The position numbers were made by a program, and so were the translations under genes. From Candidatus Giovannonibacteria bacterium (lineage in GTDB: Bacteria > Patescibacteriota > Minisyncoccia > UBA11713 > 2-01-FULL-45-33): a stretch of DNA of 64,000 bases. The DNA lies in the NCBI GenBank assembly GCA_016432405.1, contig CP066687.1, positions 219,040-283,039 of the forward strand, written 5' to 3'. Below, piece by piece: positions 1,746-61,931 of this stretch. The first letter of the stretch is position 1, and every line of letters begins with the position of its first letter. A model generated the notes under the pieces. That model saw only the letters and a list, made by a program, of their open reading frames with translations. It was not told the DNA's origin and made no database searches.

Positions 1746-1748
1746 CTT

Positions 1749-2432: not shown

Positions 2433-2439
2433 TCCGCTT

Positions 2440-4383: not shown

Positions 4384-4411
4384 CGGAAATTTTATAGTTG
4401 TATATATTAAT

Positions 4412-5398: not shown

Positions 5399-5399
5399 A

Positions 5400-7139
5400 A
5401 TGTCCGGATTTTTAAAAGAGCACAGGTTTATACTGATTTCCGCGATTTTTTTGGCGCTTGCGGTTATCTCGCCTACACTGCTGTTCCCGCTCCTCGCCGG
5501 CGATTCGTATAAGGGCATCAATCTTGGCGAATGGGACGACGACGCGGCATATATTGCCAAAGGCAGGGAAATTCTTGAAAGCCATTCTTTGGGCAATATT
5601 TTTCTTAAAATCGGCAAAAACGATTCGTCTGACCCTCACCAGGTTTACATAGAATATCTTCTTCTCGCGCCGGTTAGAATGCTGGGGCTTTCCAGCGTAG
5701 CGAAAAGTCATATCGTGGCGCTTTACGGCTTTTATGCTTTTTTGGGCGTTGCTTTGTTGATTTTATTCATTTATTTTTTTGTTCTTAACTTATCCGGCAA
5801 TAAATTGCTTTCAGCCGCAGCCGCATTGTTCGCAGTCGGCGGCCACGAGTTAGTAAAGCTGTACCACCTTCCGGTTACCGCCGTCGCCTACAATTTCAAC
5901 ATATTTTCCCGGCCGATTATGCCCGTTTACGGGCTTCTTGCGCTTTTTATTTACATAAATTTACTGGCAAAAAGTTTGCGTGAATCGGGATGGAGGTGCG
6001 TTTTTTGGGCAGGAATTTCTTTCGGCGCGTTGTTTTACGTTTACCCCTACACATGGACTTTCGCCCTGGCGCTGACAGGGAGCTTGTTTCTGATTTATCT
6101 TTTTTTGAGGGATTGGGGGCAGGCCAAAAAAGTTTTTTACATTTCGGCGATCGGTTTTGCTGTTGGATCTTACGCGCTCGTTTTATTTTTATCGTTTATT
6201 TCTTCGGAAATTGGCAAACAAATCGCCGGCTTTACAACGTTTATTTCCCACGCCCCCGCGCCTTTCAGCAAGCTCTCTTTTTTGATTTTGATTATGGCAA
6301 TTATTTACGCCTATAAAAATCGCGATAAAAAAGACTACCCGATTCTTTTGGCGATTATTCTAGCCAGCTGGATAACCCTAAATCAGCAGGTAATTACCGG
6401 GCGCGATCCGCAAGGAGTTGATCATTACTTTTGGTACTTTACCATTCCTACTTCCATTGTGGCGGGGTCTTATGTTTCGTGGGCGCTTGTGTGGGGCTGG
6501 GAGCGCGGGAAATTAATATTGCAAAAATACGGAAGCGCTTTGCTTGGCATTGTAATCATCGTTGCTTTTTTAAATACCGCGGGACAGCAATACGCAAGGA
6601 CGATTGTGATGATGGGCACCAAAGAATACGCCCAGAGTTACCGTCCGATTATTGACACGCTGAATCGCGATCCGAAACCGGGAGTTATTTTAAGTTCAGA
6701 GCTTTTCTACGGAGAGTTTTTCCCAGTATACACCGACCACGATTTATTTTGGGCCATGCACGCATTCAATTTCGCTACCCCGATAGAAAGAATGAAAGAC
6801 GCGCTTTATTTGTACGCGTATTTAGATAAAGAGGCCAGAGGCGATTTTGCCGGCGCGCTTTATAAGATAGACGCCGGCGGAGTTAAAAAAGCGTATGGGC
6901 GCCATTACTCATCAATCTATACTGCTTTAAGCAGAGAGAAAACCATAGATTTGCTTTCCGGCGAATACAAAAAAATAGTTGATAATCCCGAAGGAATCAT
7001 TAACATTTTAAAGAAAGCCGAAGTCAATTATATCGTCTGGGACAAGAATACAAACCCGGAGTGGGACCTTTCCCCGCTTGCTAATAATCTTCAAGAAATT
7101 GCCGCGTCAAACAATATTTATTTATATGCGTTGAAATAA
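5400..7139 (+). CDS. Large polytopic membrane protein, putative GT-C-type glycosyltransferase (paralogue 1 of 3)
   Basis: About 11 predicted TM helices, an acidic first-loop motif GEWDDDAAY, and a C-terminal soluble domain of about 200 aa. It is paralogous to 7144..8967 and 19786..21522. I moved the start to the ATG at 5400, just after the upstream stop. Confidence 0.5.
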   Translation: MSGFLKEHRFILISAIFLALAVISPTLLFPLLAGDSYKGINLGEWDDDAAYIAKGREILESHSLGNIFLKIGKNDSSDPHQVYIEYLLLAPVRMLGLSSVAKSHIVALYGFYAFLGVALLILFIYFFVLNLSGNKLLSAAAALFAVGGHELVKLYHLPVTAVAYNFNIFSRPIMPVYGLLALFIYINLLAKSLRESGWRCVFWAGISFGALFYVYPYTWTFALALTGSLFLIYLFLRDWGQAKKVFYISAIGFAVGSYALVLFLSFISSEIGKQIAGFTTFISHAPAPFSKLSFLILIMAIIYAYKNRDKKDYPILLAIILASWITLNQQVITGRDPQGVDHYFWYFTIPTSIVAGSYVSWALVWGWERGKLILQKYGSALLGIVIIVAFLNTAGQQYARTIVMMGTKEYAQSYRPIIDTLNRDPKPGVILSSELFYGEFFPVYTDHDLFWAMHAFNFATPIERMKDALYLYAYLDKEARGDFAGALYKIDAGGVKKAYGRHYSSIYTALSREKTIDLLSGEYKKIVDNPEGIINILKKAEVNYIVWDKNTNPEWDLSPLANNLQEIAASNNIYLYALK

Positions 7140-7143
7140 ATAC

Positions 7144-8967
7144 ATGTCTAATTTTTTTACCGAACATAAATTTATATTGATTTCCGCAGTCGGTTTGGCG
7201 CTTTTGGTGATATCGCCGGCCCTGCTTTTCCCGTTTATGGCCGGCGATGCGTATAAGGGCATAAATGTTGGTGAGTGGTCGGACGACTTCCATTATATCG
7301 CCAAAGGCAGAGAGATTCTGGAAGGCCATTCTTTGGGCAATATTGTTCTTAAAATCGGCAAAAACGATTCGTCCGACCCGCACCAGGTTTATATAGAATA
7401 TCTTCTTCTCGCGCCGGTTAGAATGCTGGGGCTTTCCCGCGCGGCGGCAGATTATATTGTTCCTATATACACTCTTTACGCTTTTTTGGGAGTTTTCCTT
7501 TTAATCCTCTCCATTTATTTTTTCATCCTGCGCCTCTCCGCGCATAAATTATTGTCCGCGGCGATAGCGCTATTTACAATAGGCGGCTACAGTTTGGTGA
7601 AGCTTTACCATGTGCCGATTACTGCAACCAATCCGGACCCCAACATATTCAGCCGGCCGATTATGCCCGTTTACGGGCTTCTGGCGCTTTTTATTTACAT
7701 CAATTTGCTTGCGAGAAGTTTAAAATCATCGGAGAAAAAACATATTCTTTGGTCCGGCATTGCCTTCGGAGCGCTGTTTTACGTTTACCCCTACACATGG
7801 ACTTTTGCCCTGGCGCTGACAGGGAGCTTGTTTCTGATTTATATTTTTTTGAGGGATTGGGAATCAGCGAAAAAAGTTTTTTGGGTTTTTACAATCGGGC
7901 TTGCCGTTGGCGCTTACACTCTTTTTAAAACGTTTTCATTTCAGTATTCGGAAATCGGCAAACAAATTTTATATTACGGGATTACTTTAAACCATAGTCC
8001 GGCGCCTTTCAGCAAGATTTTATTTTTGGCGTTAATTTTGGCAGTTATCTTTGCGTGCCGAAATAAATGGAGCAGGAACGCCCCCTTGCTTTTGTCTATT
8101 GTTCTCGCAAATTGGATAGCTTTGAACCAGCAGGTAATTACCGGGCGAGTCCCGCAAATAATGCACTATTTTTGGTATTTTACGATACCGACTTCTATCG
8201 TCGTTGGGGCTTACCTTGGATGGGCGCTTGTGTGGGGCTGGGAGCGCGGGAAATTAATATTGCAAAAATACGGAACCATTTTTTTGGCGGCGCTAATTAT
8301 CACCGCTTATTTTAATGCGGCTTCGCGGCAGTATCAGGTGACGCTGATTACGCGGGAGGCCAAAGAATACAGGCAGAACTACCGCCCTATTATTGACGCG
8401 TTGAAGTCGGATGCCGAACCGGGAGTTATCCTCGCGTCATCCCTGCCTTACGCAATGTTATTTCCGGTGTACACGCATCATGATTTATTTTGGGGGCATG
8501 CTACTGCTTTGGTTTACAATACGCCGATGGAAAGAATTAAAGATGCGCTGTACGTGTATATGTATTTGGATAAGAGCGCCAGAGACAATTTTTTGGGCCG
8601 GCTTCGCGATGTAGATGCCGGATACGGAGTTGGAGGCGAATGGGGAACCAGTTTTTACCCGCTTATTTATTTTTTTGTGGCCGGTTTTAATTCCGGTTTT
8701 GATTACGAGGAATATGGTTTTCGTTTGGCCAAGGGCGACCCGGCGACGGTTAAAAGCAGAGACGAAACGTCGGCCTTACTTTTCCGCGGATATCAAAAAG
8801 TAGCCAGTCCGGAAGGCATTGCAGGCATTCTGAAAAAAGGCGAGGTCAATTACGTCGTTTGGGATAAAAACAAAAATCCGGAGTGGAATTTGTCGCCCCT
8901 TTCCGGAAATTTAAGAGAGGTTGCCGCGTCTAACAATATTTATTTGTACAAATTTGGCGGTGACTGA
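7144..8967 (+). CDS. Large polytopic membrane protein, putative GT-C-type glycosyltransferase (paralogue 2, tandem to paralogue 1)
   Basis: Same architecture as paralogue 1. It shares several 55-80 nt stretches of nucleotide identity with it, for example 6479-6533 matches 8221-8275. Confidence 0.5.
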   Translation: MSNFFTEHKFILISAVGLALLVISPALLFPFMAGDAYKGINVGEWSDDFHYIAKGREILEGHSLGNIVLKIGKNDSSDPHQVYIEYLLLAPVRMLGLSRAAADYIVPIYTLYAFLGVFLLILSIYFFILRLSAHKLLSAAIALFTIGGYSLVKLYHVPITATNPDPNIFSRPIMPVYGLLALFIYINLLARSLKSSEKKHILWSGIAFGALFYVYPYTWTFALALTGSLFLIYIFLRDWESAKKVFWVFTIGLAVGAYTLFKTFSFQYSEIGKQILYYGITLNHSPAPFSKILFLALILAVIFACRNKWSRNAPLLLSIVLANWIALNQQVITGRVPQIMHYFWYFTIPTSIVVGAYLGWALVWGWERGKLILQKYGTIFLAALIITAYFNAASRQYQVTLITREAKEYRQNYRPIIDALKSDAEPGVILASSLPYAMLFPVYTHHDLFWGHATALVYNTPMERIKDALYVYMYLDKSARDNFLGRLRDVDAGYGVGGEWGTSFYPLIYFFVAGFNSGFDYEEYGFRLAKGDPATVKSRDETSALLFRGYQKVASPEGIAGILKKGEVNYVVWDKNKNPEWNLSPLSGNLREVAASNNIYLYKFGGD

Positions 8968-8997
8968 TAAGCGCGGCGGAGGTTGTATAATAAAGCC

Positions 8998-9618
8998 ATG
9001 CAGCAGAGCGACCATATAGAAACGTATTTAAACGAAGTTGTAGAGATTACAAAACGCATAGACCGTGGCTCTATACGCAAAATCGTCGGGATCTTGCGGG
9101 ATTTAAGAAATAAAAAAGGGCGCCTGTTTATTATCGGCGTCGGCGGTTCGGCGGCAAACGCCTCGCATGCTGTTAATGATTTCCGAAAAATTGCCCATAT
9201 TCAATCTTACGCTCCAACGGATAACGTCGCCGAGCTTACCGCTAGAGTAAACGATGACGGCTGGGATTCTGTTTTCGCGCGCTGGCTAGAGCATAATCAC
9301 ATAACGCCCAATGACGCAGTTTTGGTTTTGTCAGTTGGCGGAGGCAACGCTGAAAAAAACATAAGCGCAAATATTGTACATGCGCTGAATCACGCCAAAG
9401 AGCGCGGCGCAAAAATATTGGGCATTGTGAGCCGCGACGGCGGGTATACAGCTAAAGTCGCCGATGCCTGTGTTTTGGTGCCGGTTGTGAATCCGGACAA
9501 CGTGACGGCGCACGCGGAAGCATGGCAGGCGGTGCTGTGGCACGCGATTGTTTTTCATCCTGAATTAAAAATGACTGAAGGAAAATGGGAAAGCATAGAA
9601 AAACCGATGTTGTCTTAG
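8998..9618 (+). CDS. gmhA: SIS-domain sedoheptulose-7-phosphate isomerase
   Basis: LFIIGVGGSAANASHAVNDF...LVLSVGGGN...GAKILGIV is the phosphoheptose isomerase signature. GGAGG lies upstream. The ORF track starts at a TTG at 8983; I prefer the ATG at 8998. Confidence 0.75.
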   Translation: MQQSDHIETYLNEVVEITKRIDRGSIRKIVGILRDLRNKKGRLFIIGVGGSAANASHAVNDFRKIAHIQSYAPTDNVAELTARVNDDGWDSVFARWLEHNHITPNDAVLVLSVGGGNAEKNISANIVHALNHAKERGAKILGIVSRDGGYTAKVADACVLVPVVNPDNVTAHAEAWQAVLWHAIVFHPELKMTEGKWESIEKPMLS

Positions 9619-9633
9619 AGACAACAATTTTTC

Positions 9634-9662
9634 TTGACTAATATTAAAGGATTTGCTAGCAT
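9634..9662 (+). promoter_or_regulatory. Candidate sigma70-like promoter upstream of the P-loop kinase / gmhB / tal genes
   Basis: TTGACT, a 17-nt spacer, then TGcTAGCAT (extended -10-like) in a 76-bp intergenic gap. Confidence 0.3.
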
Positions 9663-9694
9663 AGCGGCTAGAAAATAAAACCCGGAGGTGACTC

Positions 9695-10330
9695 GTGATA
9701 GCAAATTTCCGTTTTGCGTTGGACAAACCAACGCTCATTTTGGGCGCGGGCATAGCAAGCAGCGGGAAAAGCACGGTTTTCAGGCCGATTGCGGCCGCGT
9801 TGTTTGATTCGGTGTATGTAGAAAAGGACCTGATTAACGATGCTTTTTTATGGATGCCCAAAAGCGGGGAAAGGCGGGACATGTCCCGTTATCTGGTTTC
9901 CGAGCGCATTTCAAATCAGAGTCCCATTTACAGGGATCACATATGGCTGCAAAGCTACCACTGCATGCTGATGTTGGCGCGGCAGGCGCTGGAGTTGGGG
10001 AAGCACCCGATCTTGGAAGGAAATTACGTTAAGGAAATTCGGTGGGGATATATTGAAAAGGTTTTGTTGCCCCAGCTCGCCGGTATCAACTATAAGCTTA
10101 AAATTCTTCTTGCGCATGCTCCGGCTGATTTGATTCGCGAAAGGATAATAAAACGCGACGAAGGCCGCGACAAAAAAGTAATAAGTTCCGACGAAGAATG
10201 GCAGCGCTTGCTTGCCGAACAGCCGCCCATCCCGCCAGAGATTGAGAAGTACCCGCATATGAAAATTGACACCTCCGAAGCGTTGTCTCTCCAAGCGCTT
10301 TTTGAGATCATGAGGTTTTTGGCTGATTAG
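9695..10330 (+). CDS. P-loop NTPase / predicted kinase (AAA_33 / zeta-toxin-like fold)
   Basis: Walker A GAGIASSGKST near the N-terminus. GTG start with GGAGGTG 5 nt upstream. 211 aa. Confidence 0.5.
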   Translation: MIANFRFALDKPTLILGAGIASSGKSTVFRPIAAALFDSVYVEKDLINDAFLWMPKSGERRDMSRYLVSERISNQSPIYRDHIWLQSYHCMLMLARQALELGKHPILEGNYVKEIRWGYIEKVLLPQLAGINYKLKILLAHAPADLIRERIIKRDEGRDKKVISSDEEWQRLLAEQPPIPPEIEKYPHMKIDTSEALSLQALFEIMRFLAD

Positions 10331-10394
10331 TTTTTGAGAGCCTCGGCTCGCCGCGTTACTGGCGGGCCTTTTATTTTGTTATTATTTTAGACAT

Positions 10395-10940
10395 ATGGCG
10401 CATGTCGGCAACAAAGCTGTTTTTTTTGACAGGGATGGCGTGATTCTCAAAGCGGTAGTAGATGCCGGCGTGCCGCGGCCGCCGTACAGCGTTGCTGAAT
10501 ATAAAGAGAAAAGCGGAATTATGCCTGGGGCAAAAGAAGCGGTTGAAGCGGTGCGCAGAAACGGCTTTCTTGCTATTTTGGCAACGAACCAGCCGGATAT
10601 TCGGTATGGGAGGATCACAAAGGAAGACTGGCAGTGGATACAGAACCAGATTGTGGATATTCCGTTTGACGATATTTTTATATGCTTTCACGGACGAGAT
10701 GACGGGTGCGAGTGCAAAAAACCGAAGCCGGGAATGCTGATTGCGGCCGCAAAAAAATGGGGGATTGATTTAAAAAAAACTTTTATGGTCGGGGATTCTG
10801 AAAGCGACGTGAAAGCCGGCCAAGCCGCAGGATGCAAAATAATTTTAATAGACCATGAACAAAATAAAAATTTGGAGCCCGATTTCAGGGTGACAAATTT
10901 ATCGGAAGTGGTAAAATTGATAAATGAAAATATTTATTGA
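10395..10940 (+). CDS. gmhB: D-glycero-D-manno-heptose-1,7-bisphosphate phosphatase (HAD superfamily)
   Basis: FFDRDGVI is the HAD motif I. CFHGRDDGCECKKPKPGM is the GmhB zinc-loop CxCxKP motif. MVGDSESD is motif III. Confidence 0.8.
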   Translation: MAHVGNKAVFFDRDGVILKAVVDAGVPRPPYSVAEYKEKSGIMPGAKEAVEAVRRNGFLAILATNQPDIRYGRITKEDWQWIQNQIVDIPFDDIFICFHGRDDGCECKKPKPGMLIAAAKKWGIDLKKTFMVGDSESDVKAGQAAGCKIILIDHEQNKNLEPDFRVTNLSEVVKLINENIY

Positions 10941-11658
10941 TAGCGCGAATTTAAACGATATTGAGGAGGCCTTAAAACGCGGATTCGCGGAGGGGATTAC
11001 GACAAATCCGTCTCTTCTGGCAAAAGAGCCGAAATCCTCTTTTGAGGCGCACATCGGAAAAATTGTGGAGCTGATTAAAAAACATCAGCCGGGTATTCAT
11101 TTGAGCGTGGAAGTTTTTTCGCGCGACCAAAAAATTATTTTGGAGCAGGCACAGAAATTTATGAAGCAGTTTGCTTATCCGCAAATGAGCATTAAGGTGC
11201 AAGTTGGGTGGGATGAACTTGAAACCATTAAAAAATTGAGCGCGGCTGGCATTTCGGTAAACTGCACTGCCTGTATGAATGTGACGCAAGCCGTGATGGC
11301 CGCGCGTGCTGGCGCAAAATACGTCAGTTTGTTTTGGGGCAGAATCCGCGACGGCGGGACAGATGCGGCAATGTCTAAAGAGCGAGATGAAGCCGTAAAT
11401 AAAAGAGCTTTAGACAGCGACGATTTCAATCCTTTTAAGGTTGTTCAGGCGACGCGGCAGATTTTTGACCAGGACAAAATTCCATCAGAAATTATCGCGG
11501 GCAGCATGCGCAGTGCCGTTGACGTCAGAAACGCGCGTTTAGCCGGCGCTCATATTGTGACCGTGCCCCCCAAATTTTTTCCAGATATGATTTCCCACTT
11601 CAAAACCGACCAAGTCGTCAACCAATTTTTGACTGATTTTGAAAAATGGATGAGCTAA
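10924..11658 (+). CDS. tal: Transaldolase / fructose-6-phosphate aldolase family (short type)
   Basis: FIDSANLNDIE...GITTNPSL signature; 244 aa; the product sedoheptulose-7-phosphate is the GmhA substrate. Confidence 0.7.
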   Translation: MKIFIDSANLNDIEEALKRGFAEGITTNPSLLAKEPKSSFEAHIGKIVELIKKHQPGIHLSVEVFSRDQKIILEQAQKFMKQFAYPQMSIKVQVGWDELETIKKLSAAGISVNCTACMNVTQAVMAARAGAKYVSLFWGRIRDGGTDAAMSKERDEAVNKRALDSDDFNPFKVVQATRQIFDQDKIPSEIIAGSMRSAVDVRNARLAGAHIVTVPPKFFPDMISHFKTDQVVNQFLTDFEKWMS

Positions 11659-12521
11659 AAAAAACTATAAAAAATTTAATAATCTCAATGCGGCCAAGGC
11701 AGTGGATAAAAAACCTCTTTCTTTTTGCCGCCATAATTTTCGTAAAGCAGTTTTCGGATATTGAGAAGCTGGCGGCTGTTTTTGAGGCCTTTATCATTTT
11801 CTGCTTCGCCTCAAGCGCGATTTATCTGCTAAATGACGCAGTGGACGCGCCGTATGACCGCAGACACCCGCAAAAACGCCTAAGGCCGATCGCCGCTGGA
11901 GAGCTCCCAGTATTCGGAGCTGTTTTCGCAGCCGCGGTTTTCGGAGCGCTCTCCGTTTTTTGGAGTTTTTACATAAATAATTTTTTCGCGCTTGCCGTTA
12001 TCGGATTTTTGGCGCTTAATGTTTTATATTCGTTTTATCTCAAGCGTTTCGTGATAATTGACGTGATAACAATCGCTTTGGGTTTTGTCATCCGCGTCAT
12101 CGCCGGCGCAGTCGCCATAGACGTCCGGTTTTCGGAATGGCTGATTCTTTCAACTTTTTTCCTGACGCTTTTTTTGGCTATTTCCAAGAGGAAAAACGAG
12201 CTTATGCATGCAGAGGAAACCGAAGCGCGCGAGGGGCTTGGCAGATATTCTCTCGCTCTCTTGGACCAGATGAATGCGATTGTTTTGCCTTCCACCATTA
12301 TCACCTACGCTTTTTATACGTTCAGCTCCGAGCACAGCAAGCTTCTCATGATTACAATACCCATCGTGCTTTACGGGCTTTTTCGGTATTTATTTTTGAT
12401 AAACATAAAAACGCGGAGCGACGATGGTCCCACGGACGATTTGCTTTTAGACAAACATTTGCTCGCCACTGTTTTTATCTGGCTCGCGGTTTCCGTAGCA
12501 ATGATTCTTTATGCCGGATAG
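11646..12521 (+). CDS. UbiA-family prenyltransferase, polyprenyl-phosphate phosphoribosyltransferase (DPPR synthase, Rv3806c)-like
   Basis: LLNDAVDAPYDRRHPQKRLRPIAAGEL carries the NDxxDxxxD motif; about 8 TM helices; 291 aa. Confidence 0.6.
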   Translation: MDELKKTIKNLIISMRPRQWIKNLFLFAAIIFVKQFSDIEKLAAVFEAFIIFCFASSAIYLLNDAVDAPYDRRHPQKRLRPIAAGELPVFGAVFAAAVFGALSVFWSFYINNFFALAVIGFLALNVLYSFYLKRFVIIDVITIALGFVIRVIAGAVAIDVRFSEWLILSTFFLTLFLAISKRKNELMHAEETEAREGLGRYSLALLDQMNAIVLPSTIITYAFYTFSSEHSKLLMITIPIVLYGLFRYLFLINIKTRSDDGPTDDLLLDKHLLATVFIWLAVSVAMILYAG

Positions 12522-12540
12522 ATTTTTTGAGGAGCTGGAT

Positions 12541-12918
12541 ATGCCGCGGCAGGGGGCTGTGATTTTTTTGGACATTGACGGCACTTTGCGGCCGGACGGA
12601 GATCAAGGAATGAGTCAGGAGGTTTTAAATAAGCTGGCGGAGCTTAAGGCCAAAAACGAAGTTCATTTAATCAGCAATAAAGGCAACGGCGCAAAAAAGC
12701 CGAGCCGAGAAGCGGCAGAGGGCGTTGATATGGCCGGGAAAAAAGTTGTGGTGATAGGCGATAAATTTTTGACGGACGGGCTGTTCGCGAAAAATATCGG
12801 AGCCGAATTCGTTAAAGTCAGAAGAAAAATTTCAGGCCGGGAGAATTTTTTTGTTAAAGTCGCGTATTTTATTGACGATTTTATTTCTGCTATATTATGG
12901 AAACAAAAAAATATTTAA
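12541..12918 (+). CDS. HAD superfamily phosphatase (small, IIIA-like)
   Basis: [11 protein letters not shown] is the HAD motif I; GDKFLTDG is motif III. GAGGAG lies 7 nt upstream of the ATG at 12541. Confidence 0.55.
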
Positions 12919-13940
12919 TAACAGGCGGCGCCGGGTTTTTGGGAATTAACCTCGCGCGTTTTCTGCTCAAAAAAGGGCAGAAAGTAAGAATTCTGGATTT
13001 GGCCCAGTTTGATTACCCGGAGAGAAACAAGGTTGAGGCGCTGCTCGGGGACACAAGAGATAAATCAGGCGTTGATAAAGCGATGGACAGAATTGACATT
13101 GTTGTCCATGCGGCGGCCGCGTTGCCGCTTTATTCGCAAAAAGACATATACTCCACGGAAGTGGACGGAACAAAAAACGTTTTAGAAAGCGCCGGGCGGC
13201 GCAACGTTGACAGATTTATACATATTTCCAGCACGGCGGTTTACGGCATTCCCGACCACCACCCGATTTACGAAAATGATAAGCTTCAGGGAGTTGGGCC
13301 TTACGGCGAGGCGAAAATTCTGGCGGAGAAATTTTGCGAGGAAGCAAGAAAAAATGGAATGTGCGTTACAATTCTCCGGCCGAAATCTTTTGTGGGACCC
13401 GAGCGGTTGGGGGTTTTCGCGCTTTTTTACGATTGGGCGGGCACCGGGCACAATTTCCCCATGATCGGCAACGGAAAAAACAGCTACCAGCTTTTAGACG
13501 TTGAAGATTTATGCGAGGCGATTTTTCTTTCGGCTACCTTGCCGAAAGAAAAGGCCAACGACACTTTCAATGTCGGCGCAAAGGATTTTGCGACGATGCG
13601 CCGGGACTGGCAGGCGGTTTTGGACCGCGCGGGATTCGGCAAAAAAATTATCGGTTTGCCCGCTGCCCCCATGATTTTTGTTTTGAGATTCTTGGAGATT
13701 TTGCGCCTTTCACCTCTTTACAAATGGGTTTATGAAACCGCAGGCAAGGACTCTTTTGTGTCAGTGGAAAAAGCTGAACGGATTTTGGGATTCCGTCCAA
13801 AATATTCCAACAAAGAAGCGCTCGTCCGCAACTATGAATGGTATTTGGCTAATCTGGATAAATTTAAAAACCAGACCGGGGTATCCCACCGCGTCCCGTG
13901 GAAACAGGGGATTTTAAAAATCGCTAAGCTTTTTTTTTGA
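12897..13940 (+). CDS. NAD-dependent epimerase/dehydratase (extended SDR)
   Basis: ITGGAGFLG glycine-rich motif; YGEAK is the catalytic YxxxK; 347 aa. Confidence 0.7.
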
Positions 13941-13943
13941 GTT

Positions 13944-14537
13944 ATGCGGTTTGACCTTTTGCGGGCCGCAATTGTGGGGGAAGCCATCGCGCTTTTGACT
14001 TTGCCGACGTTAAAAAATATAAATTTTTTTGAGCCGACATTTGTCGCCGTCTGGCTGGTCTTCGTGCCCGCGGCGGCGCTCGCCGGTTTTTATTTGATTT
14101 ATTTGACGTCGGCGAGGCGGCCCGTCTTGCTGGAGTTGGGAAAATACGGCCTCGTCGGATGCTTCAATTTTTTTCTGGACGCGGGCATTTTCAACTTTTT
14201 TATTTTAATTACTGGCATTGCCAGGGGTTGGCCGGTGGACGTTTTTATAATAATTGCTTTTGCGATAACGATAACGCAAAGTTTTTTGTGGAATAAATTC
14301 TGGATTTTTAAGGCGAACGATTTGGCCAATGCGCGCGCGCAGTACGCAAAATTTTTCAGCATGACTGTTGTCACTTCCCTTTTAGGGCTTTTGTTTATGC
14401 ATCTTATGATAAATACCATCGGTGCTCCCTCCGGTTTTGATTTGAAAGTTTGGGCGAATCTCGCGCTTTTAGTTTTGATACCGACGTCTGCCCTGGGCAA
14501 TTTCCTTGGCTATAAGTTTTTTGTTTTTAAAAAATGA
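13944..14537 (+). CDS. GtrA-family protein (lipid-linked sugar translocase / flippase family)
   Basis: LGKYGLVGCFNFFLDAGIFNFF...SFLWNKFWIFK is the GtrA signature; 4-5 TM helices. Confidence 0.65.
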   Translation: MRFDLLRAAIVGEAIALLTLPTLKNINFFEPTFVAVWLVFVPAAALAGFYLIYLTSARRPVLLELGKYGLVGCFNFFLDAGIFNFFILITGIARGWPVDVFIIIAFAITITQSFLWNKFWIFKANDLANARAQYAKFFSMTVVTSLLGLLFMHLMINTIGAPSGFDLKVWANLALLVLIPTSALGNFLGYKFFVFKK

Positions 14538-15202
14538 CTCACGCCGAATATTGCAGCAAGTTTATTCCCGCCGGCGGCAGGGTCTTGGATGTGGGCTCCG
14601 GCAGGGGCGATTTTCTGCGCGAGATGGCCGGCTTGGGATTTGACGCGTGCGGAGTTGAGCCGAACACCGAGCGGATTTTTTCCGCAATAGGCGGACCAGC
14701 CTTTGGCCGGGAAAAGGTTGTGAAGGTAAGCGCCGAAAACTTGCCGTTCCCCGATAATCATTTTGATTTTGTAAATTGCGCCGAGGTCAGCGAGCACGTT
14801 GACGATCCTTCTAAGATGCTCCAAGAAATTTTTCGGGTTCTAAAGCCCGGAGGGAAATGCTACACAAGTTTTCACAATCGCTTGGGGGTTTACGACTATC
14901 ATTATCGGCTTTATTTTATAAACTGGATGCCGAGGGTTTGGACAGAGCCGATTTTAAAATTTTTAGGAAAACAAAAAGAGGACGGCCCGGCCGGACGCCA
15001 GAAACTGACCACGATGCATTATTATACTTACGGACAAGTTTTGAAAATGCTTCACAATGCCAGTTTTTCCGCAGAAGACATCCGAAAAGAGAAAATTAGA
15101 CAATTCTTCGGCATCACGCGCTTGCCGTTTTTTATTTTATATTTCACATTGCTTCGTCCGTTATATTTCAACACCTTCCATTTTTTGCTTGCCAAACCTT
15201 AA
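14534..15202 (+). CDS. Class I SAM-dependent methyltransferase
   Basis: VLDVGSGRGDF is motif I; LKPGGKCY is the post-II motif. Confidence 0.7.
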   Translation: MTHAEYCSKFIPAGGRVLDVGSGRGDFLREMAGLGFDACGVEPNTERIFSAIGGPAFGREKVVKVSAENLPFPDNHFDFVNCAEVSEHVDDPSKMLQEIFRVLKPGGKCYTSFHNRLGVYDYHYRLYFINWMPRVWTEPILKFLGKQKEDGPAGRQKLTTMHYYTYGQVLKMLHNASFSAEDIRKEKIRQFFGITRLPFFILYFTLLRPLYFNTFHFLLAKP

Positions 15203-15227
15203 TCCGACCTGATAAGTTATAAGAGAT

Positions 15228-16985
15228 ATGAGATTTCTTGTAACCGGAGGGTGCGGATTTATGGGGTCAAATTTTATCCATTATGTTTTGGATAATTTCC
15301 CCGAGAGCGCTGTCATAAATCTTGACCTCTTGACGTACGCCGGAAACGAGGAAAATCTTCGCGGCGTCCCGCCATCCAGATACCGGTTTGTGAAAGGTGA
15401 CATTTGCGACACGGAGCTCGTAAAAAAGCTGATGCGGGAATCCGACTTCGTCGTAAACTTCGCCGCCGAGAGTCATGTGGACAGGTCAATCCATTCCGAC
15501 GCCGACGATTTTGTCCATACCAATGTCGTAGGAGTCCACTCGCTTTTGAAAGCGTTGAGGGGCTCGCCTAACGTTAAAAAGATGGTTCATATCTCGACGG
15601 ACGAAGTCTGGGGCGATTTGCATTTTAAGTCGCAGGAGAAGTTTACCGAAGAGTCGCCGCTTAGGCCGAGTTCTCCGTACGCCGCTTCCAAGGCCGCCGG
15701 CGAAATGCTTGTGCGTGCTTATCATAAAACCTATGGCCTGCCGGTGGTCATTTCGCGTTCGGTCAACAATTTCGGGCCGAGGCAGCATCCGGAAAAAGTG
15801 ATTCCGTTTTTCGCCATGCTGGCAATGGACAACAAGCCCCTGCCGATTCACGGCAGCGGTTTAAATGTGCGGTCGTGGATTCACGTAGACGACCACACCC
15901 GCGCCGTCCTCGCTCTTTTGGAAAAAGCTCCCTCGGGGGAGATATACGGCGTTTCCGCAGATGAAGAGTGCTCAAACATGGATATTGCCGGAAAAATATT
16001 GAGAATTTTAAACAAGCGGGAAAACCTGGTTACTTTCGTTGAAGACCGTCCGGCAAATGACAGGAGGTATGCGGTTAATCCGTCAAAGCTGCTCGCTTTA
16101 GGATGGCGCCCCCAGCGTTCGCTGGACAGCCACATCCCGGTGACCATTGATTGGTATAAAGAAAATCAGACATGGCTTAGTAGTGTTGCCAGGAAGTATG
16201 AAAGCACGAGCGAAGAGATGCGGCGTTCGTCCGCAGATATCAGAAAAAGGGCGCTTGCTGGTTCGCCCGCCAGATCTCTTTCAATTTTTTTCCCGTGCCT
16301 TAACGAGAAAGGGACAATCGCCACAATGGTTTTGGAAGGCAGAAAAACCGCCGTGTCGCTCACGGACGATTTTGAAATTATTGTCGTAGACGATGGCTCC
16401 ACCGACGGCAGCCGCGAGCTTCTTTTGGAGCTTCAAAAGAGCGTTCCGGAATTAAAATTAGTTTTTCGCGAAAAGAGGGGTTACGGCGCGGCGCTTAGAA
16501 ATGGATTTAAGGCGGCAACAAAAGAGCTTGTTTTTTATACCGATGGCGACGGGCAATATGACGTGAGTGAATTACCGATGCTGTGGAATAAATTAACCAA
16601 CGAAGTAGATATTGTAAATGGCTACAAAATTAAACGAGCCGACCCGTTGTACCGCATTATCATTGGTTTTATTTATCAGCATGTTACAAGATGGGCGTTT
16701 TGGTTGCCAATTAGAGACCCTGATTGCGACTTCCGCTTAATTCGCAGAAAAGTGTTTGACACGGTTGAGCTTAAAAGCGATACCGGCACCATAACTATTG
16801 AGATTGTAAAAAGAATTCAGCAAGCCGGCTTCCGTTTTGTTGAAGTTGGAGTTTCGCATTACAACCGCACATATGGAAGTTCTCAATTTTTTAACTTCCG
16901 TAGGATCGTTGTCACATTATGGCGTTTGGCTTTTTTGTGGGTGGAGCTGATTATATTTTCGGGCAGACGAAAAAATCATGGATGA
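15228..16985 (+). CDS. rfbB: Bifunctional fusion: dTDP-glucose 4,6-dehydratase (RmlB-like) N-terminal domain plus a GT2 glycosyltransferase C-terminal domain
   Basis: N-terminus VTGGCGFMGSNFIHYVL...NLDLLTYAGNEENL with YAASKAAGE, typical of RmlB. C-terminus from about residue 345: VVDDGSTDGS...YTDGDGQYD, a GT2 DxD core. 585 aa. Confidence 0.65.
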   Translation: MRFLVTGGCGFMGSNFIHYVLDNFPESAVINLDLLTYAGNEENLRGVPPSRYRFVKGDICDTELVKKLMRESDFVVNFAAESHVDRSIHSDADDFVHTNVVGVHSLLKALRGSPNVKKMVHISTDEVWGDLHFKSQEKFTEESPLRPSSPYAASKAAGEMLVRAYHKTYGLPVVISRSVNNFGPRQHPEKVIPFFAMLAMDNKPLPIHGSGLNVRSWIHVDDHTRAVLALLEKAPSGEIYGVSADEECSNMDIAGKILRILNKRENLVTFVEDRPANDRRYAVNPSKLLALGWRPQRSLDSHIPVTIDWYKENQTWLSSVARKYESTSEEMRRSSADIRKRALAGSPARSLSIFFPCLNEKGTIATMVLEGRKTAVSLTDDFEIIVVDDGSTDGSRELLLELQKSVPELKLVFREKRGYGAALRNGFKAATKELVFYTDGDGQYDVSELPMLWNKLTNEVDIVNGYKIKRADPLYRIIIGFIYQHVTRWAFWLPIRDPDCDFRLIRRKVFDTVELKSDTGTITIEIVKRIQQAGFRFVEVGVSHYNRTYGSSQFFNFRRIVVTLWRLAFLWVELIIFSGRRKNHG

Positions 16986-17373
16986 AATCATATTAAAATC
17001 GGTTAAGGGGCCGGTTGGCGAGCTACACGCAGGCAAGATCTACGAGCAAATACCGTTTGCCATAAAAGAGTTTTACGTTATACAGAATGTCCCCAATCGG
17101 CAGATTGCGCGCGGGATGCACGCGCATAAAAAACGGGAGCAGGTAATTTTTTGCCTGCAGGGCTCATTCACGCTCCATATGGATGACGGAAACAAAAAAT
17201 GGAGCGTTGTAATGAATGACCCGGCGCGCGGCATGCGGCTTAAAAAAAGAGTGTGGCATTCAATGACGGATTTTTCCAAGGACTGCATTATGCTTGTCGT
17301 GGCAGACGATTTTGAAGACGCAAGCGATTACATCAGGGATTACGACGAGTTTTTGAAGTTTGTAAAAACATGA
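16978..17373 (+). CDS. fdtA: dTDP-4-dehydro-6-deoxyglucose 3,4-ketoisomerase (FdtA/QdtA, WxcM-like cupin)
   Basis: ARGMHAHKKREQVIFCLQGSFTLHMDDG matches the FdtA RGxHAHKxxxQ...GSF core; 131 aa. Confidence 0.65.
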   Translation: MDEIILKSVKGPVGELHAGKIYEQIPFAIKEFYVIQNVPNRQIARGMHAHKKREQVIFCLQGSFTLHMDDGNKKWSVVMNDPARGMRLKKRVWHSMTDFSKDCIMLVVADDFEDASDYIRDYDEFLKFVKT

Positions 17374-18206
17374 ATCAAGCCAGATGCACAATATGCGGCA
17401 ACGCTGCCAATAATCTGACTAAAGATGCCGAGCTTTTTATTTACGAGTGCTCTTTGTGTAGCCATGTGTTTGCTGTTATACCTGCGGACCAGCAAAAAAA
17501 ATATAATCATGATTATTTTACCAAAGAACACGAGAACTGGTTTAAAAATCCGAACACGAAACTTTTTCGCTTTATAGCCGGTCAAATCAATGCGCATTTT
17601 GGTCAGAAAAATATTGCGCTTTTGGATGTTGGCTGCGGCAACGGAGATTTTCTAAAATTTTTTTACCGGCACCGCGGCAATTCAACGTTATGCGGCATAG
17701 ACGTTGCTCGGCTTTTTGAAGACGCAAACATTTCTTTTTTACATGGCGATTTTAATACGATGGAGCTCAAGCAAAATTTTGACGTTGTTACCAGTCTGAT
17801 GGCTATTGAGCATATAGAGAATCCTGTTTTATTTACTAAAAAGATTTTCAGCGCTTTGGAGCGCGATGGCATGGCTGTTGTGGCGACTATCAACAGCAAC
17901 GGCCTAATTTATCGTTTAGCCGGCTTATTGAAGGCGCTGGGCATTCGAGGCCCGTACGAAAGGCTTTATGACCACGCGCATCTGCAGCATTATACAAACG
18001 CGTCTTTGAAAAAACTTTTGGAAAACTGCGGATTTGAAGTTCTTTTGCAAAGAAATCATAATTTCCCGCTAGCCGCCTTAGATGTGCCCAAAAGCAATGT
18101 AGTTTTAGAAACCGTTTATCGCGCCGGAGTAGCCGCTATTTTTACGCTTACCTCGGTTTTCGGCGGAGGCATGGACCAGACCATAATTTGTAGAAAGGCC
18201 CCATGA
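17370..18206 (+). CDS. SAM-dependent methyltransferase with an N-terminal Cys4 zinc ribbon
   Basis: CTICGN...CSLCSH zinc ribbon; LLDVGCGNGDF is motif I. Confidence 0.6.
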   Translation: MNQARCTICGNAANNLTKDAELFIYECSLCSHVFAVIPADQQKKYNHDYFTKEHENWFKNPNTKLFRFIAGQINAHFGQKNIALLDVGCGNGDFLKFFYRHRGNSTLCGIDVARLFEDANISFLHGDFNTMELKQNFDVVTSLMAIEHIENPVLFTKKIFSALERDGMAVVATINSNGLIYRLAGLLKALGIRGPYERLYDHAHLQHYTNASLKKLLENCGFEVLLQRNHNFPLAALDVPKSNVVLETVYRAGVAAIFTLTSVFGGGMDQTIICRKAP

Positions 18207-18721
18207 TTCAATTTTTTGACTTTCACAAAAATTATTACACGGGAATAAAAGGCGTATATTTTCGTAGAATTTTAAAAAAAATAATAAAAATAGGTGATTT
18301 GAGCAGTAAACGGGTGCTTGATTTCGGCTGCGGGAGGGGCGAACTAAAAAAACTTTTGCCGAGCGTTGTGGGCTACGACATTTTGCCTGATTTGAGCGAC
18401 GTAGCGGACTGGAGAAGCGTTAAATTTGACACGGTGGTGGCGAACGAAGTATTCTATCTTTTTTCCAAAAAAGAGCTTGAGATTTTTTTAGACGAACTTT
18501 ATAAATGCAATCCCAAAGCAGAATTGATTGTCGGTATCAGCAGGCAGAGTATTTTAAACAACATCGCCAAATATCTCGGCGACGTAAAAGACGCTTATGC
18601 TGGGACTAAGCTTTCGCCGAGCGAGGAATTGGCTGTCTTGAAAGACAGAATGAATGTGATTGACAAAAAAACTGTATGGTTTATGTGTAATATATACTTA
18701 CTTCGTTTTAAACATTTGTAG
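18203..18721 (+). CDS. Small class I SAM-dependent methyltransferase
   Basis: VLDFGCGRGEL is motif I; 172 aa. Confidence 0.55.
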   Translation: MIQFFDFHKNYYTGIKGVYFRRILKKIIKIGDLSSKRVLDFGCGRGELKKLLPSVVGYDILPDLSDVADWRSVKFDTVVANEVFYLFSKKELEIFLDELYKCNPKAELIVGISRQSILNNIAKYLGDVKDAYAGTKLSPSEELAVLKDRMNVIDKKTVWFMCNIYLLRFKHL

Positions 18722-18722
18722 C

Positions 18723-19793
18723 ATGATTAAATTCGTAGATTTTACAAGAGAATACATATCTATAAAGAGCGAAATAGACGCCGCTATCAAGAAAGTCTTG
18801 CGGCGCGGAGTTTTCATTTTGGGTCCGGAGGTGGAAAATTTTGAAAAAAAATTCGCGAAATATTGCGGCGTCCGATACGCCGTGGGAGTCGCGTCCGGCA
18901 CGGACGCGCTCTATTTGAGCTTGCTGGCTTTGGGTATTGGGCGAGGAGATGAGGTGATTGTGCCGGTAAATACCGCTTTGGCGACTGCTATGGCCGTTAA
19001 GATGAGCGGAGCCAAGCCGGTTTTTTGCGACTCTGATGAAAATTTTTTGATAGACATAGACAAAATCCCGGCGCTTATAAATAAAAAAACAAAAGCGCTT
19101 ATCCCAGTGCATCTTTACGGCAGGGCGTGCAATATGGATAAATTAAGAGTCGTCGCAAAAAAACACAAACTATTTTTAATAGAAGATTGCGCGCAGGCGG
19201 CTGGGGCAAAATGGCGCGGCAAAAAAGCCGGCGGCTGGGGGGATTTTAGCTGCTTTAGTTTTTATCCGACAAAGAATTTGGGCGCTTACGGGGATGGGGG
19301 AGCCGTAACAACAAATAGCGAAGACCATTATAAAAAATTACGGGCATTGCGCTTTTACGGGGCGCACGACCGGATAACCAGCGCGATGTTCGGCATAAAC
19401 AGCCGTTTGGACGAAAAGCAGGCCGCGATTTTGAGCGTTAAGTTGAAATATCTGGATAACTGGAACAAAAAAAGAGCGTCCCTGGCCGATCTTTATAGAA
19501 AACTGATTACTAATAAAAATATTACTTTGCCTGCGGCAAATTCTGGCGAACACGTCTATCATTTATTCGTCGCGCGCGCGAAAAACCGCGACGCTCTGAT
19601 GAACGTGCTGAAAAAGAAAAGCGTTCAAACTATGATTCACTATCCGCTTCTTCTTCATGAGCAGCCGGTTTTTAATTACAAAGGCAAATTTGCCAACGCC
19701 GAAAAATATTCCAAAGAAATTTTTTCTTTGCCTATTCATCCGTTTTTGAAAAAAGAAGAAGTAGCGCGGATAGCCAAAATTTTAAATGCGTGA
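18723..19793 (+). CDS. DegT/DnrJ/EryC1/StrS family sugar aminotransferase (FdtB/QdtB-like)
   Basis: ILGPEVENFEKKFAKYCG...AVGVASGTDAL; FSFYPTKNLGA contains the PLP-lysine region. I chose the ATG at 18723, directly after the upstream stop. Confidence 0.75.
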   Translation: MIKFVDFTREYISIKSEIDAAIKKVLRRGVFILGPEVENFEKKFAKYCGVRYAVGVASGTDALYLSLLALGIGRGDEVIVPVNTALATAMAVKMSGAKPVFCDSDENFLIDIDKIPALINKKTKALIPVHLYGRACNMDKLRVVAKKHKLFLIEDCAQAAGAKWRGKKAGGWGDFSCFSFYPTKNLGAYGDGGAVTTNSEDHYKKLRALRFYGAHDRITSAMFGINSRLDEKQAAILSVKLKYLDNWNKKRASLADLYRKLITNKNITLPAANSGEHVYHLFVARAKNRDALMNVLKKKSVQTMIHYPLLLHEQPVFNYKGKFANAEKYSKEIFSLPIHPFLKKEEVARIAKILNA

Positions 19794-21522
19794 ACACGGC
19801 TTGATTATTATTTTGGGGCTCCTTCTGACTCTTTTGATTGAGGCGCCGCTTTTGGTGTTTCCTTTTGTTTCAAAAAATTATCAGGGCATCAACATTCCGC
19901 ATTTCGGCACCGATTCGCATTTTTATTTAAGCCGCGCCAAAGAAGCTTTGGAAGGGCGCGGCATGGGCAATCCGTGGCTGCGCGAAGGCAAGGAGCGGCA
20001 AGACATTATGTTTATGTATAACGAGCGCGCGCTTACTGCGCCGATAAGATTTCTGGGGCTTGCTGATAGAATCAATGTTGTAACTCTGTATAACATCTAT
20101 AATTTTATCGGGATTTTTATTTTGATTTTACTTGCTTATTTTTTTGTTTGGCAACTTTCGGGAAGCAAACTTTTATCCGCCGTCGCGGCGGTGTTTGCGA
20201 TCGGCGGCTACCATATTGTCTACAGGCAATTTCTTTACAATGATTTCAACATCTACGGCCGGCCGATGTTTCCTTACATGAGTTCTTTGGCTTTTTTTGC
20301 GTATTTAAATCTTTTAGTGTTATGGCTTAGGACGAAAAAATTTATTTACGGGCTTTTCTCCGCCGTCGCGCTTGGTTCGCTTTTTTACATATACTTTTTT
20401 GCCTGGACTTTCGCTTTGGCTTTAAACGGAGCGCTGTTTTTGCTGTATTTTCTAAAGCGCGAATGGGCGCCCGCAAAATCGCTGACTCTTATTTCCGCGG
20501 CCGGCGTACTTATCGGGTTTTATAATCTTTTTCAGATGTGGGCGCTCTTTCAATCCGACATCGGCGCGCAGATTGCGTATTTCCATTGGTCAAGCCGCAC
20601 GCATCTGCCGATTTTCAGTAAAATCGGCGCCGCCATGCTTTTGCTCCTCGCGTTTTTTTGGTACCGGAAACGAAATAATGAAAGGATTATTTTAATTTCG
20701 GCTTTGATTTTGGCCGGCTGGATTTCTTTAAACCAACAAATAATCACCGGCAAGGCGGTTGAGATCGGGCATTACTACTGGTATTTCATTGTCCCGCTTT
20801 CCATTCTCGCCGGCTTGTACATGTTATGGGAACTGCTGGATAATTTCGCGTGGCGGAAGCAGTTGTTTGCGTCTATGCTGGTTGTCGTATTTTTGCACGG
20901 CGCACTGGGGCAGTATCGTTCTTTTTTCATTACCTTGCCGGGGAAGGAATATGAGCAATCATACCGGCCGATAATTGCGGAATTAAAAAAAGACGCTGCC
21001 CCCGGAGTTGTATTGGCCGCGGACGACTATTTGGCTTATCTGATTGCAATTTATACCGACCGTGATTTATTTTGGGCGGGAGCGGCTTCGCAGACGATAA
21101 TGCCTTTTTCGCGTTTTTCCGACATGCTTTATGTTTACGCATATTTAAATAAAGAGGCGCGAGGGGATTTTGCCGGCTACTTGCGCAGCTTGATGAGCGA
21201 TGCAACCGACGACTCTTTTTATAAAGGCCTTTACGGATTTATAGAGGGGTTTTCCTCCGGCATGGATTATTATGATTATGTTTATAAAGCGAAAACAGAC
21301 AAAAATGTTATAGGTCCGCACAGGGAGCGGCTGATTGCCGATCTCGCTCGCGAATATTCTCAATTGACGGGCGGCGGCGGGATGGCCGGCTTGTTGAAAA
21401 AATACGGCGTCAAATACATTGTTTGGGACAAAAACAGACATCCCGAATGGGACTTGTCTTTTCTGAAATTTAAACTGCTTCTTGAGCATAACAATATAGA
21501 CCTTTACGAGGTTATATATTGA
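19786..21522 (+). CDS. Large polytopic membrane protein, putative GT-C-type glycosyltransferase (paralogue 3)
   Basis: Same architecture as 5400..7139 and 7144..8967. Shared motifs include INQQIITGK, YYWYF and a C-terminal YIVWDKN..PEWDLS. Confidence 0.5.
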   Translation: MREHGLIIILGLLLTLLIEAPLLVFPFVSKNYQGINIPHFGTDSHFYLSRAKEALEGRGMGNPWLREGKERQDIMFMYNERALTAPIRFLGLADRINVVTLYNIYNFIGIFILILLAYFFVWQLSGSKLLSAVAAVFAIGGYHIVYRQFLYNDFNIYGRPMFPYMSSLAFFAYLNLLVLWLRTKKFIYGLFSAVALGSLFYIYFFAWTFALALNGALFLLYFLKREWAPAKSLTLISAAGVLIGFYNLFQMWALFQSDIGAQIAYFHWSSRTHLPIFSKIGAAMLLLLAFFWYRKRNNERIILISALILAGWISLNQQIITGKAVEIGHYYWYFIVPLSILAGLYMLWELLDNFAWRKQLFASMLVVVFLHGALGQYRSFFITLPGKEYEQSYRPIIAELKKDAAPGVVLAADDYLAYLIAIYTDRDLFWAGAASQTIMPFSRFSDMLYVYAYLNKEARGDFAGYLRSLMSDATDDSFYKGLYGFIEGFSSGMDYYDYVYKAKTDKNVIGPHRERLIADLAREYSQLTGGGGMAGLLKKYGVKYIVWDKNRHPEWDLSFLKFKLLLEHNNIDLYEVIY

Positions 21523-21523
21523 T

Positions 21524-23173: not shown

Positions 23174-23209
23174 AAACACCCTTGTTATAATCCGTAAGGA
23201 GGTAAAAAT

Positions 23210-24214: not shown

Positions 24215-24243
24215 AAAAAGAGCCCCAATGGGGGCTTTTTTGT
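24213..24243. terminator. Bidirectional rho-independent terminator between convergent genes
   Basis: GAGCCCC-AAT-GGGGGCT hairpin flanked by an A-tract upstream and a T-tract downstream. Confidence 0.6.
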
Positions 24244-24248
24244 CTGGT

Positions 24249-35335: not shown

Positions 35336-35350
35336 AAAAGTTTTAAAAGC

Positions 35351-45271: not shown

Positions 45272-45273
45272 AA

Positions 45274-46335: not shown

Positions 46336-46349
46336 TTAAGGAGGACGAT

Positions 46350-46772: not shown

Positions 46773-46788
46773 TCTGGGGGTTTTATAT

Positions 46789-51688: not shown

Positions 51689-51689
51689 C

Positions 51690-53204: not shown

Positions 53205-53223
53205 AGTATCTCGCTAAGGTATT

Positions 53224-55132: not shown

Positions 55133-55133
55133 A

Positions 55134-61761: not shown

Positions 61762-61931
61762 TTAATCAAACAATAACGTTTCCAGCTCTTTGTAAAGCTG
61801 TTTACGCGCCAATATGTCTTTGAGCGATTCTTTTGCGAAAGTTTTATACTCCGCAATGTTTCTAAATTGATCTAGGATTATTTTTTTCTCACAAGTCCCT
61901 TTTTGTTTTTCTACATATTCTTCCCAACTCG

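Follow-up and report, generated by a model that had tools for sequence, protein, structure and literature searches.

We analysed a 64,000-nucleotide stretch of a Candidatus Giovannonibacteria genome (contig CP066687.1, forward strand; hereafter the window, whose own numbering is used for all coordinates), in which four adjacent genes at 11646-14537 may form a module for the synthesis of a lipid-linked pentose. The organism belongs to the Patescibacteria, or candidate phyla radiation (CPR), and the nearest homologues of a window protein come from Candidatus Giovannonibacteria (92% identity) and Parcubacteria (89%). The window, with about 46% G+C, is one long and mostly plus-strand glycan island, at least 60 kb of it being given over to glycan genes. 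Within it a co-directional plus-strand array extends from 8983 to 24617, where intergenic gaps are at most 76 nt and overlaps are frequent, and all four open reading frames (ORFs) of the module were found there, on the plus strand, at the coordinates named in an earlier note on this DNA. They encode a protein of the UbiA superfamily (11646-12521), a small protein of the HAD superfamily (12541-12918), an extended short-chain dehydrogenase/reductase (SDR; 12897-13940) and a membrane protein of the GtrA family (13944-14537). Their adjacency is close, for the frames overlap or abut: the UbiA and HAD genes overlap by 11 nt if the longest HAD frame, from 12511, is taken and are separated by 19 nt with the start at 12541, the HAD and SDR genes overlap by 22 nt, and 3 nt separate the SDR from the GtrA gene. 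On the 5' side the UbiA start overlaps by 13 nt the stop of a transaldolase/FSA gene (10924), and on the 3' side the GtrA gene overlaps a methyltransferase gene by 4 nt.

The first protein, which matches Pfam UbiA, had been described as similar to Rv3806c of Mycobacterium tuberculosis with the NDxxDxxxD motif, and a comparison of UbiA subfamilies by profile models bears this out. The two NCBIfam models named "decaprenyl-phosphate phosphoribosyltransferase" are passed with 238.6 bits (NF008977, cut-off 234) and 207.4 bits (NF008978, cut-off 207), while the heme o synthase and UbiA/MenA-type models give at most 36 bits against cut-offs of 180-390, and that of chlorophyll synthase falls below them. 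The motif is present as N63-D64-x-x-D67-x-x-x-D71, and residues 9-287 align to the cryo-EM structure of Rv3806c (8j8j) with an E-value of 4.8e-38. Among the residues of the Mg/phosphoribosyl pyrophosphate (PRPP) site of Rv3806c, 11 of 14 are identical, namely R22, K28, Y70, N73, D74, D77, D81, K87, R90, Y138 and K143, and three differ (Q135 to N125, Y157 to F147 and K208 to E). In Rv3806c, N73 and D77 serve Mg2+, R22, K87, R90, Y138 and K143 the pyrophosphate, K28, Y70 and Y157 the 5-phosphate, and Q135 the ribose at O3 (PMC10994848). Phe in place of Y157 also occurs in some mycobacteria. With these contacts mapped and kept, PRPP is very probably the donor, so that the 5-phosphate of the first product would need to be removed, and the assignment of the protein as a polyprenyl-phosphate 5-phosphoribosyltransferase (PPPRS) of the type of decaprenyl-phospho-5-phosphoribose (DPPR) synthase is strongly supported. 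An aromatic or quinone-type prenyltransferase without any role in glycan synthesis would be the other way to read a UbiA protein. The weak matches to the heme o synthase and UbiA/MenA-type models speak for it; against the DPPR scores they are very small, and with the Rv3806c-specific 5-phosphate and ribose contact residues kept, we consider this reading effectively refuted and its probability minute.

UbiA proteins about 43% identical to that of the window occur in Chloroflexota, Acidobacteriota, Clostridium, Paenibacillus and others (loci L008-L083), where the neighbours include DUF362 proteins (18 loci), GT4 glycosyltransferases (16), GHMP kinases (15), FtsJ/TlyA proteins (11) and proteins of the amino-acid-kinase family (10). 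These cousins, from 80 genomes, were considered as possible sharers of the module, but their context is mostly another one, that of DUF362, GHMP kinase, amino-acid kinase and GT4, and they were not used as support.

The second gene had been called a small HAD phosphatase, and it stays so on account of its matches to HAD-superfamily models, its intact motifs and its place directly 3' of the UbiA gene. Its start is probably at 12541, with GAGGAG 8 nt upstream, which is also the start chosen by gene callers on identical contigs. The product has 125 aa, with both motif I (DIDGT, holding the nucleophile) and motif IV (GDKFLTD) intact; a cap domain is ruled out because the protein is too short for one. 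All family matches are weak (Pfam Hydrolase_like, PF13242, and PGP_phosphatase, PF09419; NCBIfam HAD-IIIA, YqeG-like), and a sequence search of the PDB gave no relative at E < 0.03. Orthologues lie 3' of the UbiA gene in the closest Giovannonibacteria islands (L004 and L005) and in a Magasanikbacteria locus (L086), and phmmer searches for the small HAD and GtrA proteins beside distant UbiA relatives found them in the two closest CPR loci only. Elsewhere other phosphatases stand beside PPPRS: HAD-IB proteins (PF12710) in loci L113, L117 and L127 and in Lactococcus, a PHP-domain protein in Haloterrigena and one Elusimicrobiota genome, and a protein of the endonuclease/exonuclease/phosphatase family in Streptomyces, while in rhizobia a HAD domain is fused to PPPRS. 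We read this variety as non-orthologous displacement of one step. Its position and unbroken catalytic motifs, together with the finding of some phosphatase at this place in locus after locus, suggest that the small HAD protein is the candidate 5-phosphatase acting on polyprenyl-phosphate-linked ribose 5-phosphate.

The third gene encodes an extended SDR of 347 aa (PF01370) with the motifs TGGAGFLG, SSTAVYG and YGEAK, and its start is fixed at 12897, since a later one would cost TGGAGFLG. An acidic residue after the second strand is typical of NAD+ binders, and D34 occupies this position. An Asp/Glu pair marks 4,6-dehydratases among the SDRs; the protein lacks such a pair. The AlphaFold2 model (pLDDT 85.5) has its best fold matches in UDP-hexose 4-epimerases, with TM-scores of about 0.76 and 20-26% identity, so the protein is described here as GalE-like. 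No curated family is passed in the NCBIfam scan (the best, HpnA, gives 112 bits against a cut-off of 368), and the sequence search of the PDB returned generic matches only.

This SDR belongs to a clade of its own. Its members in Magasanikbacteria (72% identical to the window protein) and Elusimicrobiota (69%) are followed by those in WOR-1 (50%), Haloterrigena (49%), Streptomyces (42%) and Rhizobium and strain NGR234 (33%), and in all of these a PPPRS-type gene adjoins the SDR gene or is near it, while SDRs outside the clade, whether neighbours of UbiA genes or encoded at other places in the window, show 20-30% identity. In a metagenome sample of 80 loci retrieved with the SDR as query, many of them on short contigs, a PPPRS-like gene adjoins the SDR at 9 of 47 clade loci and at none of the 33 where the SDR is outside the clade (Fisher p = 0.006); the arrangement is thus more than chance. 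The clade also conserves a hydrophobic segment (251-269) and, at the C-terminus, a clade-specific tail (HRVPWxQGxLxxAKxFF) whose end forms an amphipathic helix; these features would fit action at the membrane surface.

Two distant settings of this SDR clade may be described here. On haloarchaeal megaplasmids PPPRS, an SDR of the window type (49-52% identity), a PHP-domain protein, an LPG_synthase_TM protein and two membrane glycosyltransferases of the GT-C fold (Mannosyl_trans4 and GT39) are found side by side, as on a plasmid of Haloterrigena sp. KLK7 (L090, 6135-13053), with further matches in Natronococcus and Halostagnicola; this gene set suggests a pentofuranose glycosylation system in Archaea. 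A rhizobial-type variant lies on symbiosis plasmids (Rhizobium sp. CCGE531, L089; S. fredii NGR234 pNGR234a near nodS/nodU, L092; also L132 and L134) and consists of a clade SDR (33%), two SMR-like proteins, a GMC flavoprotein, a hypothetical membrane protein of 658 aa, a second, unrelated SDR and a HAD-UbiA fusion.

The fourth gene was correctly placed in the GtrA family: residues 67-195 match GtrA_DPMS_TM (PF04138, E 2.7e-13), and five hydrophobic segments are predicted. The protein is a candidate flippase for a polyprenyl-phosphate-linked sugar, and GtrA proteins occur within PPPRS modules elsewhere, namely in locus L113, with the order UbiA-GtrA-SMR-HAD-SDR-GT87, and on a Lactococcus plasmid. 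The gene which overlaps the GtrA stop codon (14534-15202, plus strand) encodes a class I S-adenosylmethionine-dependent methyltransferase (Pfam Methyltransf_11/23/25); it is kept directly 3' of GtrA in L004 and L005, and it is an uncertain member of the module.

Candidate users of lipid-linked donors are present in the window as three plus-strand paralogues of one membrane glycosyltransferase family without a Pfam match: 7144-8967, of GT-C fold, 5358-7139, which is 66% identical to it and has eight hydrophobic segments, the first loop being long, and 19786-21522, which is 41% identical to it and has seven. The GT-C fold was shown for the paralogue that was modelled, with AftA as joint top structural match. 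For this family 89 clusters were found, of which those with a named source are almost all from CPR bacteria and all named ones are labelled hypothetical. Some CPR homologues (P0263, P0265, P0307, P0314 and P0327; 727-853 aa) are fused to a GT2 domain, and such fusions would put a polyprenyl-phosphate-sugar synthase and the GT-C enzyme that consumes its product in one polypeptide. The earlier note had counted four GT-C enzymes, and three of them stand. The fourth, 57072-58667, with nine predicted transmembrane segments, was compared with the family by hhalign at a probability of 0.2% and is not accepted as a member; it has one weak match, of 31 bits against a cut-off of 200, to a family of putative membrane glycosyltransferases of Leptospira. 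GT-C enzymes also follow the PPPRS-SDR pair in WOR-1 (TMEM260-like/PMT_2 with TPR repeats), L113 (GT87) and Haloterrigena (Mannosyl_trans4 and GT39).

From these parts a route can be proposed. The enzyme at 11646 would move 5-phosphoribose from PRPP onto polyprenyl phosphate, and the small HAD protein (12541) would take off the 5-phosphate. The GalE-like SDR (12897), with bound NAD+, would then epimerise the lipid-linked ribofuranose via a keto intermediate, the most likely outcome, after the single characterised precedent, being C3 epimerisation to xylofuranose (Xylf), with C2 epimerisation to arabinofuranose (Araf) as the alternative. The donor may next be flipped across the membrane by the GtrA protein (13944), and at least one of the GT-C paralogues (5358, 7144, 19786) would put the pentose on a surface glycan or protein. 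To this reading as a whole, in which PRPP is turned into a pentofuranose donor on polyprenyl phosphate that serves glycosylation outside the cytoplasm, we give a probability of roughly 0.7. As for the sugar, Xylf is a tentative assignment held at somewhat short of even odds, and Araf is doubtful; the rest of the probability is divided between an unaltered ribofuranose, which is rather unlikely, and some other outcome.

The precedent was described by Kelly et al. (PNAS 2024): in their pentofuranose glycosylation system PPPRS and a HAD phosphatase make undecaprenyl-phosphate-linked ribofuranose from PRPP, a small transporter (MATE or SMR-like) exports the donor, and a GT-C enzyme adds the sugar outside the cytoplasm (PMC11127046). 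In Citrobacter youngae O1/O2 the parts are ORF12 (GT-C/GT136), ORF13 (SDR epimerase), ORF14 (MATE flippase) and ORF15 (PRP-PPPRS), and in O2 a single cytoplasmic GalE-like SDR, ORF13, turns undecaprenyl-phosphate-linked ribofuranose into the xylofuranose form, its C3 epimer, while Araf systems carry homologues of DprE1 and DprE2 (PMC11127046). The window likewise has a UbiA-type PPPRS predicted to use PRPP, a 5-phosphatase candidate of the HAD superfamily, a single GalE-like SDR, a small putative membrane transporter and GT-C enzymes. It differs in that the phosphatase is a separate capless HAD protein of 125 aa, whereas Citrobacter has a fused and capped PRP domain, that the transporter is of the GtrA family instead of MATE, that a CPR-restricted family without a Pfam model supplies the GT-C enzymes, as three paralogues, and that the host belongs to the Patescibacteria. 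The module is thus most likely the Giovannonibacteria version of the 2024 system, a new example of a mechanism already described; its variant parts are the minimal stand-alone HAD, the GtrA-type transporter and the GT-C family without a Pfam model found almost solely in CPR. Our search of the literature on this transferase in Patescibacteria and on follow-ups of GT136 and pentofuranose found only the 2024 paper and its commentary.

Other systems resemble the window in part. The D-Araf system of Pseudomonas aeruginosa PA7/Pa5196 pilin has the PPPRS PsPA7_6246, DprE1/E2 homologues and TfpW (PMC11127046), and it is likewise a PPPRS-based lipid-linked pentofuranose route outside Actinobacteria used by a GT-C enzyme for surface glycosylation, but with the DprE1/DprE2 homologues for Araf that the scanned window ORFs lack. 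Lactococcus plasmid pLLF27D, known from annotation only, carries in a polysaccharide locus a row of separate genes for a hypothetical protein of 533 aa, a "decaprenyl-phosphate phosphoribosyltransferase", a HAD-IB phosphatase and GtrA; the PPPRS, HAD and GtrA genes recall the module, while an SDR is absent there and the HAD is of the IB type. The GtrA/GtrB/GtrC O-antigen glucosylation of Shigella and Salmonella phages shares with the window a GtrA-family protein, a GT-C enzyme and nearby GtrB/ArnC-like GT2s (15228-16985 and 1749-2432), whereas its donor comes from a UDP-sugar and a GT2, and that of the window module from PRPP by a UbiA-type enzyme.

The earlier note had likened the four genes to mycobacterial decaprenyl-phospho-arabinose (DPA) synthesis (Rv3806c, Rv3807c, DprE1/DprE2, Rv3789 and Aft/Emb), and a true mycobacterial-type arabinose route, in which the SDR would act as a DprE2-like ketoreductase and the flavoprotein at 2440-4383 in place of DprE1 to give polyprenyl-phosphate-linked Araf, has to be weighed. 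The parallel is real for the first enzyme, which is homologous, aligns over its full length and conserves the active site, and it extends to GtrA, corresponding to Rv3789, and to the GT-C enzymes, corresponding to Aft/Emb, AftA being among their best structural matches. It breaks at the middle steps. The module phosphatase was tested for the PAP2 type of Rv3807c and belongs to the HAD superfamily instead, and Pfam scans that covered the window ORFs taken as genes revealed neither a FAD_binding_4/VAO protein of the DprE1 type nor a classical-SDR candidate for DprE2. DprE2 is a classical short SDR, whereas the SDR of the window is extended, GalE-like and, by its acidic D34, of the NAD+ type, and this single enzyme would have to do the whole epimerisation; the claim of a DprE2-like protein is not supported. 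The flavoprotein does possess the FAD domain expected of it, of the DAO type, and it is kept in the two closest Giovannonibacteria islands; it is a fusion of this domain with a GFO/IDH/MocA NAD domain, its N-terminal half resembles UDP-GlcNAc 3-dehydrogenase, and it lies 7 kb upstream of the module among nucleotide-sugar genes, beside an ArnC-like GT2 and a nucleotidyltransferase. Outside those close relatives (L004 and L005) it is absent beside PPPRS-SDR pairs. As a DprE1 analogue it was therefore rejected, being fused in this way and unconnected with the module. In modules of the rhizobial type an SDR stands together with a FAD-dependent GMC oxidoreductase, so oxidase/reductase pairs do exist in such systems, and the CCGE531 locus, which Kelly et al. 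list, holds a GMC flavoprotein and an unrelated SDR together with the window-clade SDR (32-33% identical); on the other side stands the report that Araf systems have DprE1/E2 homologues (PMC11127046). On balance a mycobacterial-type route appears improbable to us. Given the results for the flavoprotein and the SDR and the missing DprE1/DprE2, the idea of a lipid-linked pentose donor stands, and remains the best reading with PPPRS, phosphatase, SDR, GtrA and GT-C present, while the specifically mycobacterial, DPA-like detail does not. The closest precedent is the single-SDR Xylf branch of the 2024 system, not mycobacterial DPA synthesis.

A further possibility is that the SDR is one more nucleotide-sugar enzyme of the island and that the module delivers unmodified polyprenyl-phosphate-linked ribofuranose, as in C. 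youngae O1. The island is dense in enzymes of nucleoside-diphosphate sugars and the SDR fold is nearest to UDP-hexose 4-epimerases, which would suit such a role; yet PPPRS and this SDR are neighbours again in haloarchaea and in distant bacterial phyla, the first 22 nt of the SDR gene lie within the HAD gene, generic SDR neighbours are just 20-30% identical to it, and the hydrophobic segment and amphipathic tail are the clade's own. We regard this as rather unlikely, if slightly less so than the mycobacterial route. The clade might also have another product, being a single-protein polyprenyl-phosphate-ribose 2'-epimerase or a maker of lyxo-, keto- or deoxy-pentofuranose, and not a C3 (xylo) epimerase, which has a modest chance in our estimate; if true, the DprE1/DprE2 pair would have a non-orthologous substitute that is widespread and reaches Archaea. 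Several observations weigh against the preferred reading, a pentofuranose donor made from PRPP. About four fifths of the clade metagenome loci are without an adjacent PPPRS, and Chloroflexota orthologues of the SDR with 70-72% identity are placed away from any PPPRS, which also favours a nucleotide-sugar role. The window SDR is a putative counterpart of C. youngae ORF13 by class and motifs, both being GalE-like with TGxxGxxG and YxxxK. The small HAD protein is of the capless IIIA/YqeG-like kind, whereas the characterised PRP domain is PF12710/HAD-IB, and BLASTP aligns it neither to the N-terminal HAD of the rhizobial fusion nor to the Lactococcus HAD-IB protein. Finally, the GtrB/ArnC-like GT2s could be the enzymes that GtrA and the GT-C proteins work with, in place of the pentose module or in addition to it. 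One of these GT2s is part of the plus-strand gene 15228-16985, where a dTDP-glucose 4,6-dehydratase (TIGR01181, 406 bits, residues 3-318) is fused to a GT2 domain (352-512) whose best-named matches include ArnC, PgfS, Dol-P-hexose transferase and AglJ; the other is the ArnC-like protein 1749-2432 (138.8 bits). The island appears to hold several lipid-linked monosaccharide donor routes and one GtrA, and GtrA and the GT-C paralogues are therefore not tied uniquely to the pentose donor.

The remainder of the window shows the breadth of the island. The region 15228-21522, with the RmlB-GT2 fusion, FdtA, two methyltransferases and a DegT aminotransferase followed by a GT-C paralogue, is a second candidate route for a lipid-linked sugar, and a methylated 3-amino-3,6-dideoxyhexose on polyprenyl phosphate would fit it. 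A GDP-heptose-like gene set is divided into two parts, 361-5398, with an NTP-transferase (1080) and an HddA-like GHMP kinase (4412), and 8983-11658, with a GmhA-like SIS protein (8983), an AAA_33 kinase (9695), a GmhB-like HAD protein (10395) and the transaldolase/FSA (10924); two small GT2 genes, one of them the ArnC-like 1749-2432, are also in this region. Genes of a nonulosonic-acid set (legionaminic/pseudaminic-like) lie at 32711-36076 and 44129-49889, comprising UDP-GlcNAc 2-epimerase, NeuB, a hexapeptide acyltransferase, DegT, an SDR and a PseB-like dehydratase, with a CMP-sugar cytidylyltransferase and a HisF/HisH-like pair further upstream. Teichoic-acid-like genes at 42072-43256 and 49886-55562 encode two TagF-like glycerophosphotransferases, a TagD-like cytidylyltransferase (minus strand), an LtaS-like membrane protein with a sulfatase domain and an ABC exporter. 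Near the 3' end, past the last large plus-strand ORF, there is an IS200-like (Y1 transposase) gene on the minus strand (61762-62406).

Genomes in the CPR are very small, and these bacteria are believed to live fixed to other cells; to our knowledge almost nothing is known of their surface chemistry, and the window offers at least 60 kb of glycan genes from one of them. The reading proposed here predicts that a CPR-specific GT-C family puts a pentofuranose, Xylf or Araf, on the cell surface in a step outside the cytoplasm. It means as well that labels of "decaprenyl-phosphate phosphoribosyltransferase" outside Actinobacteria should not be taken for arabinan synthesis, and that the SDR clade may serve as a bioinformatic marker for finding such systems. 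The pathway described in 2024 would thereby be extended to the Patescibacteria, and the conserved pairing of PPPRS and SDR makes an extension to haloarchaea probable.

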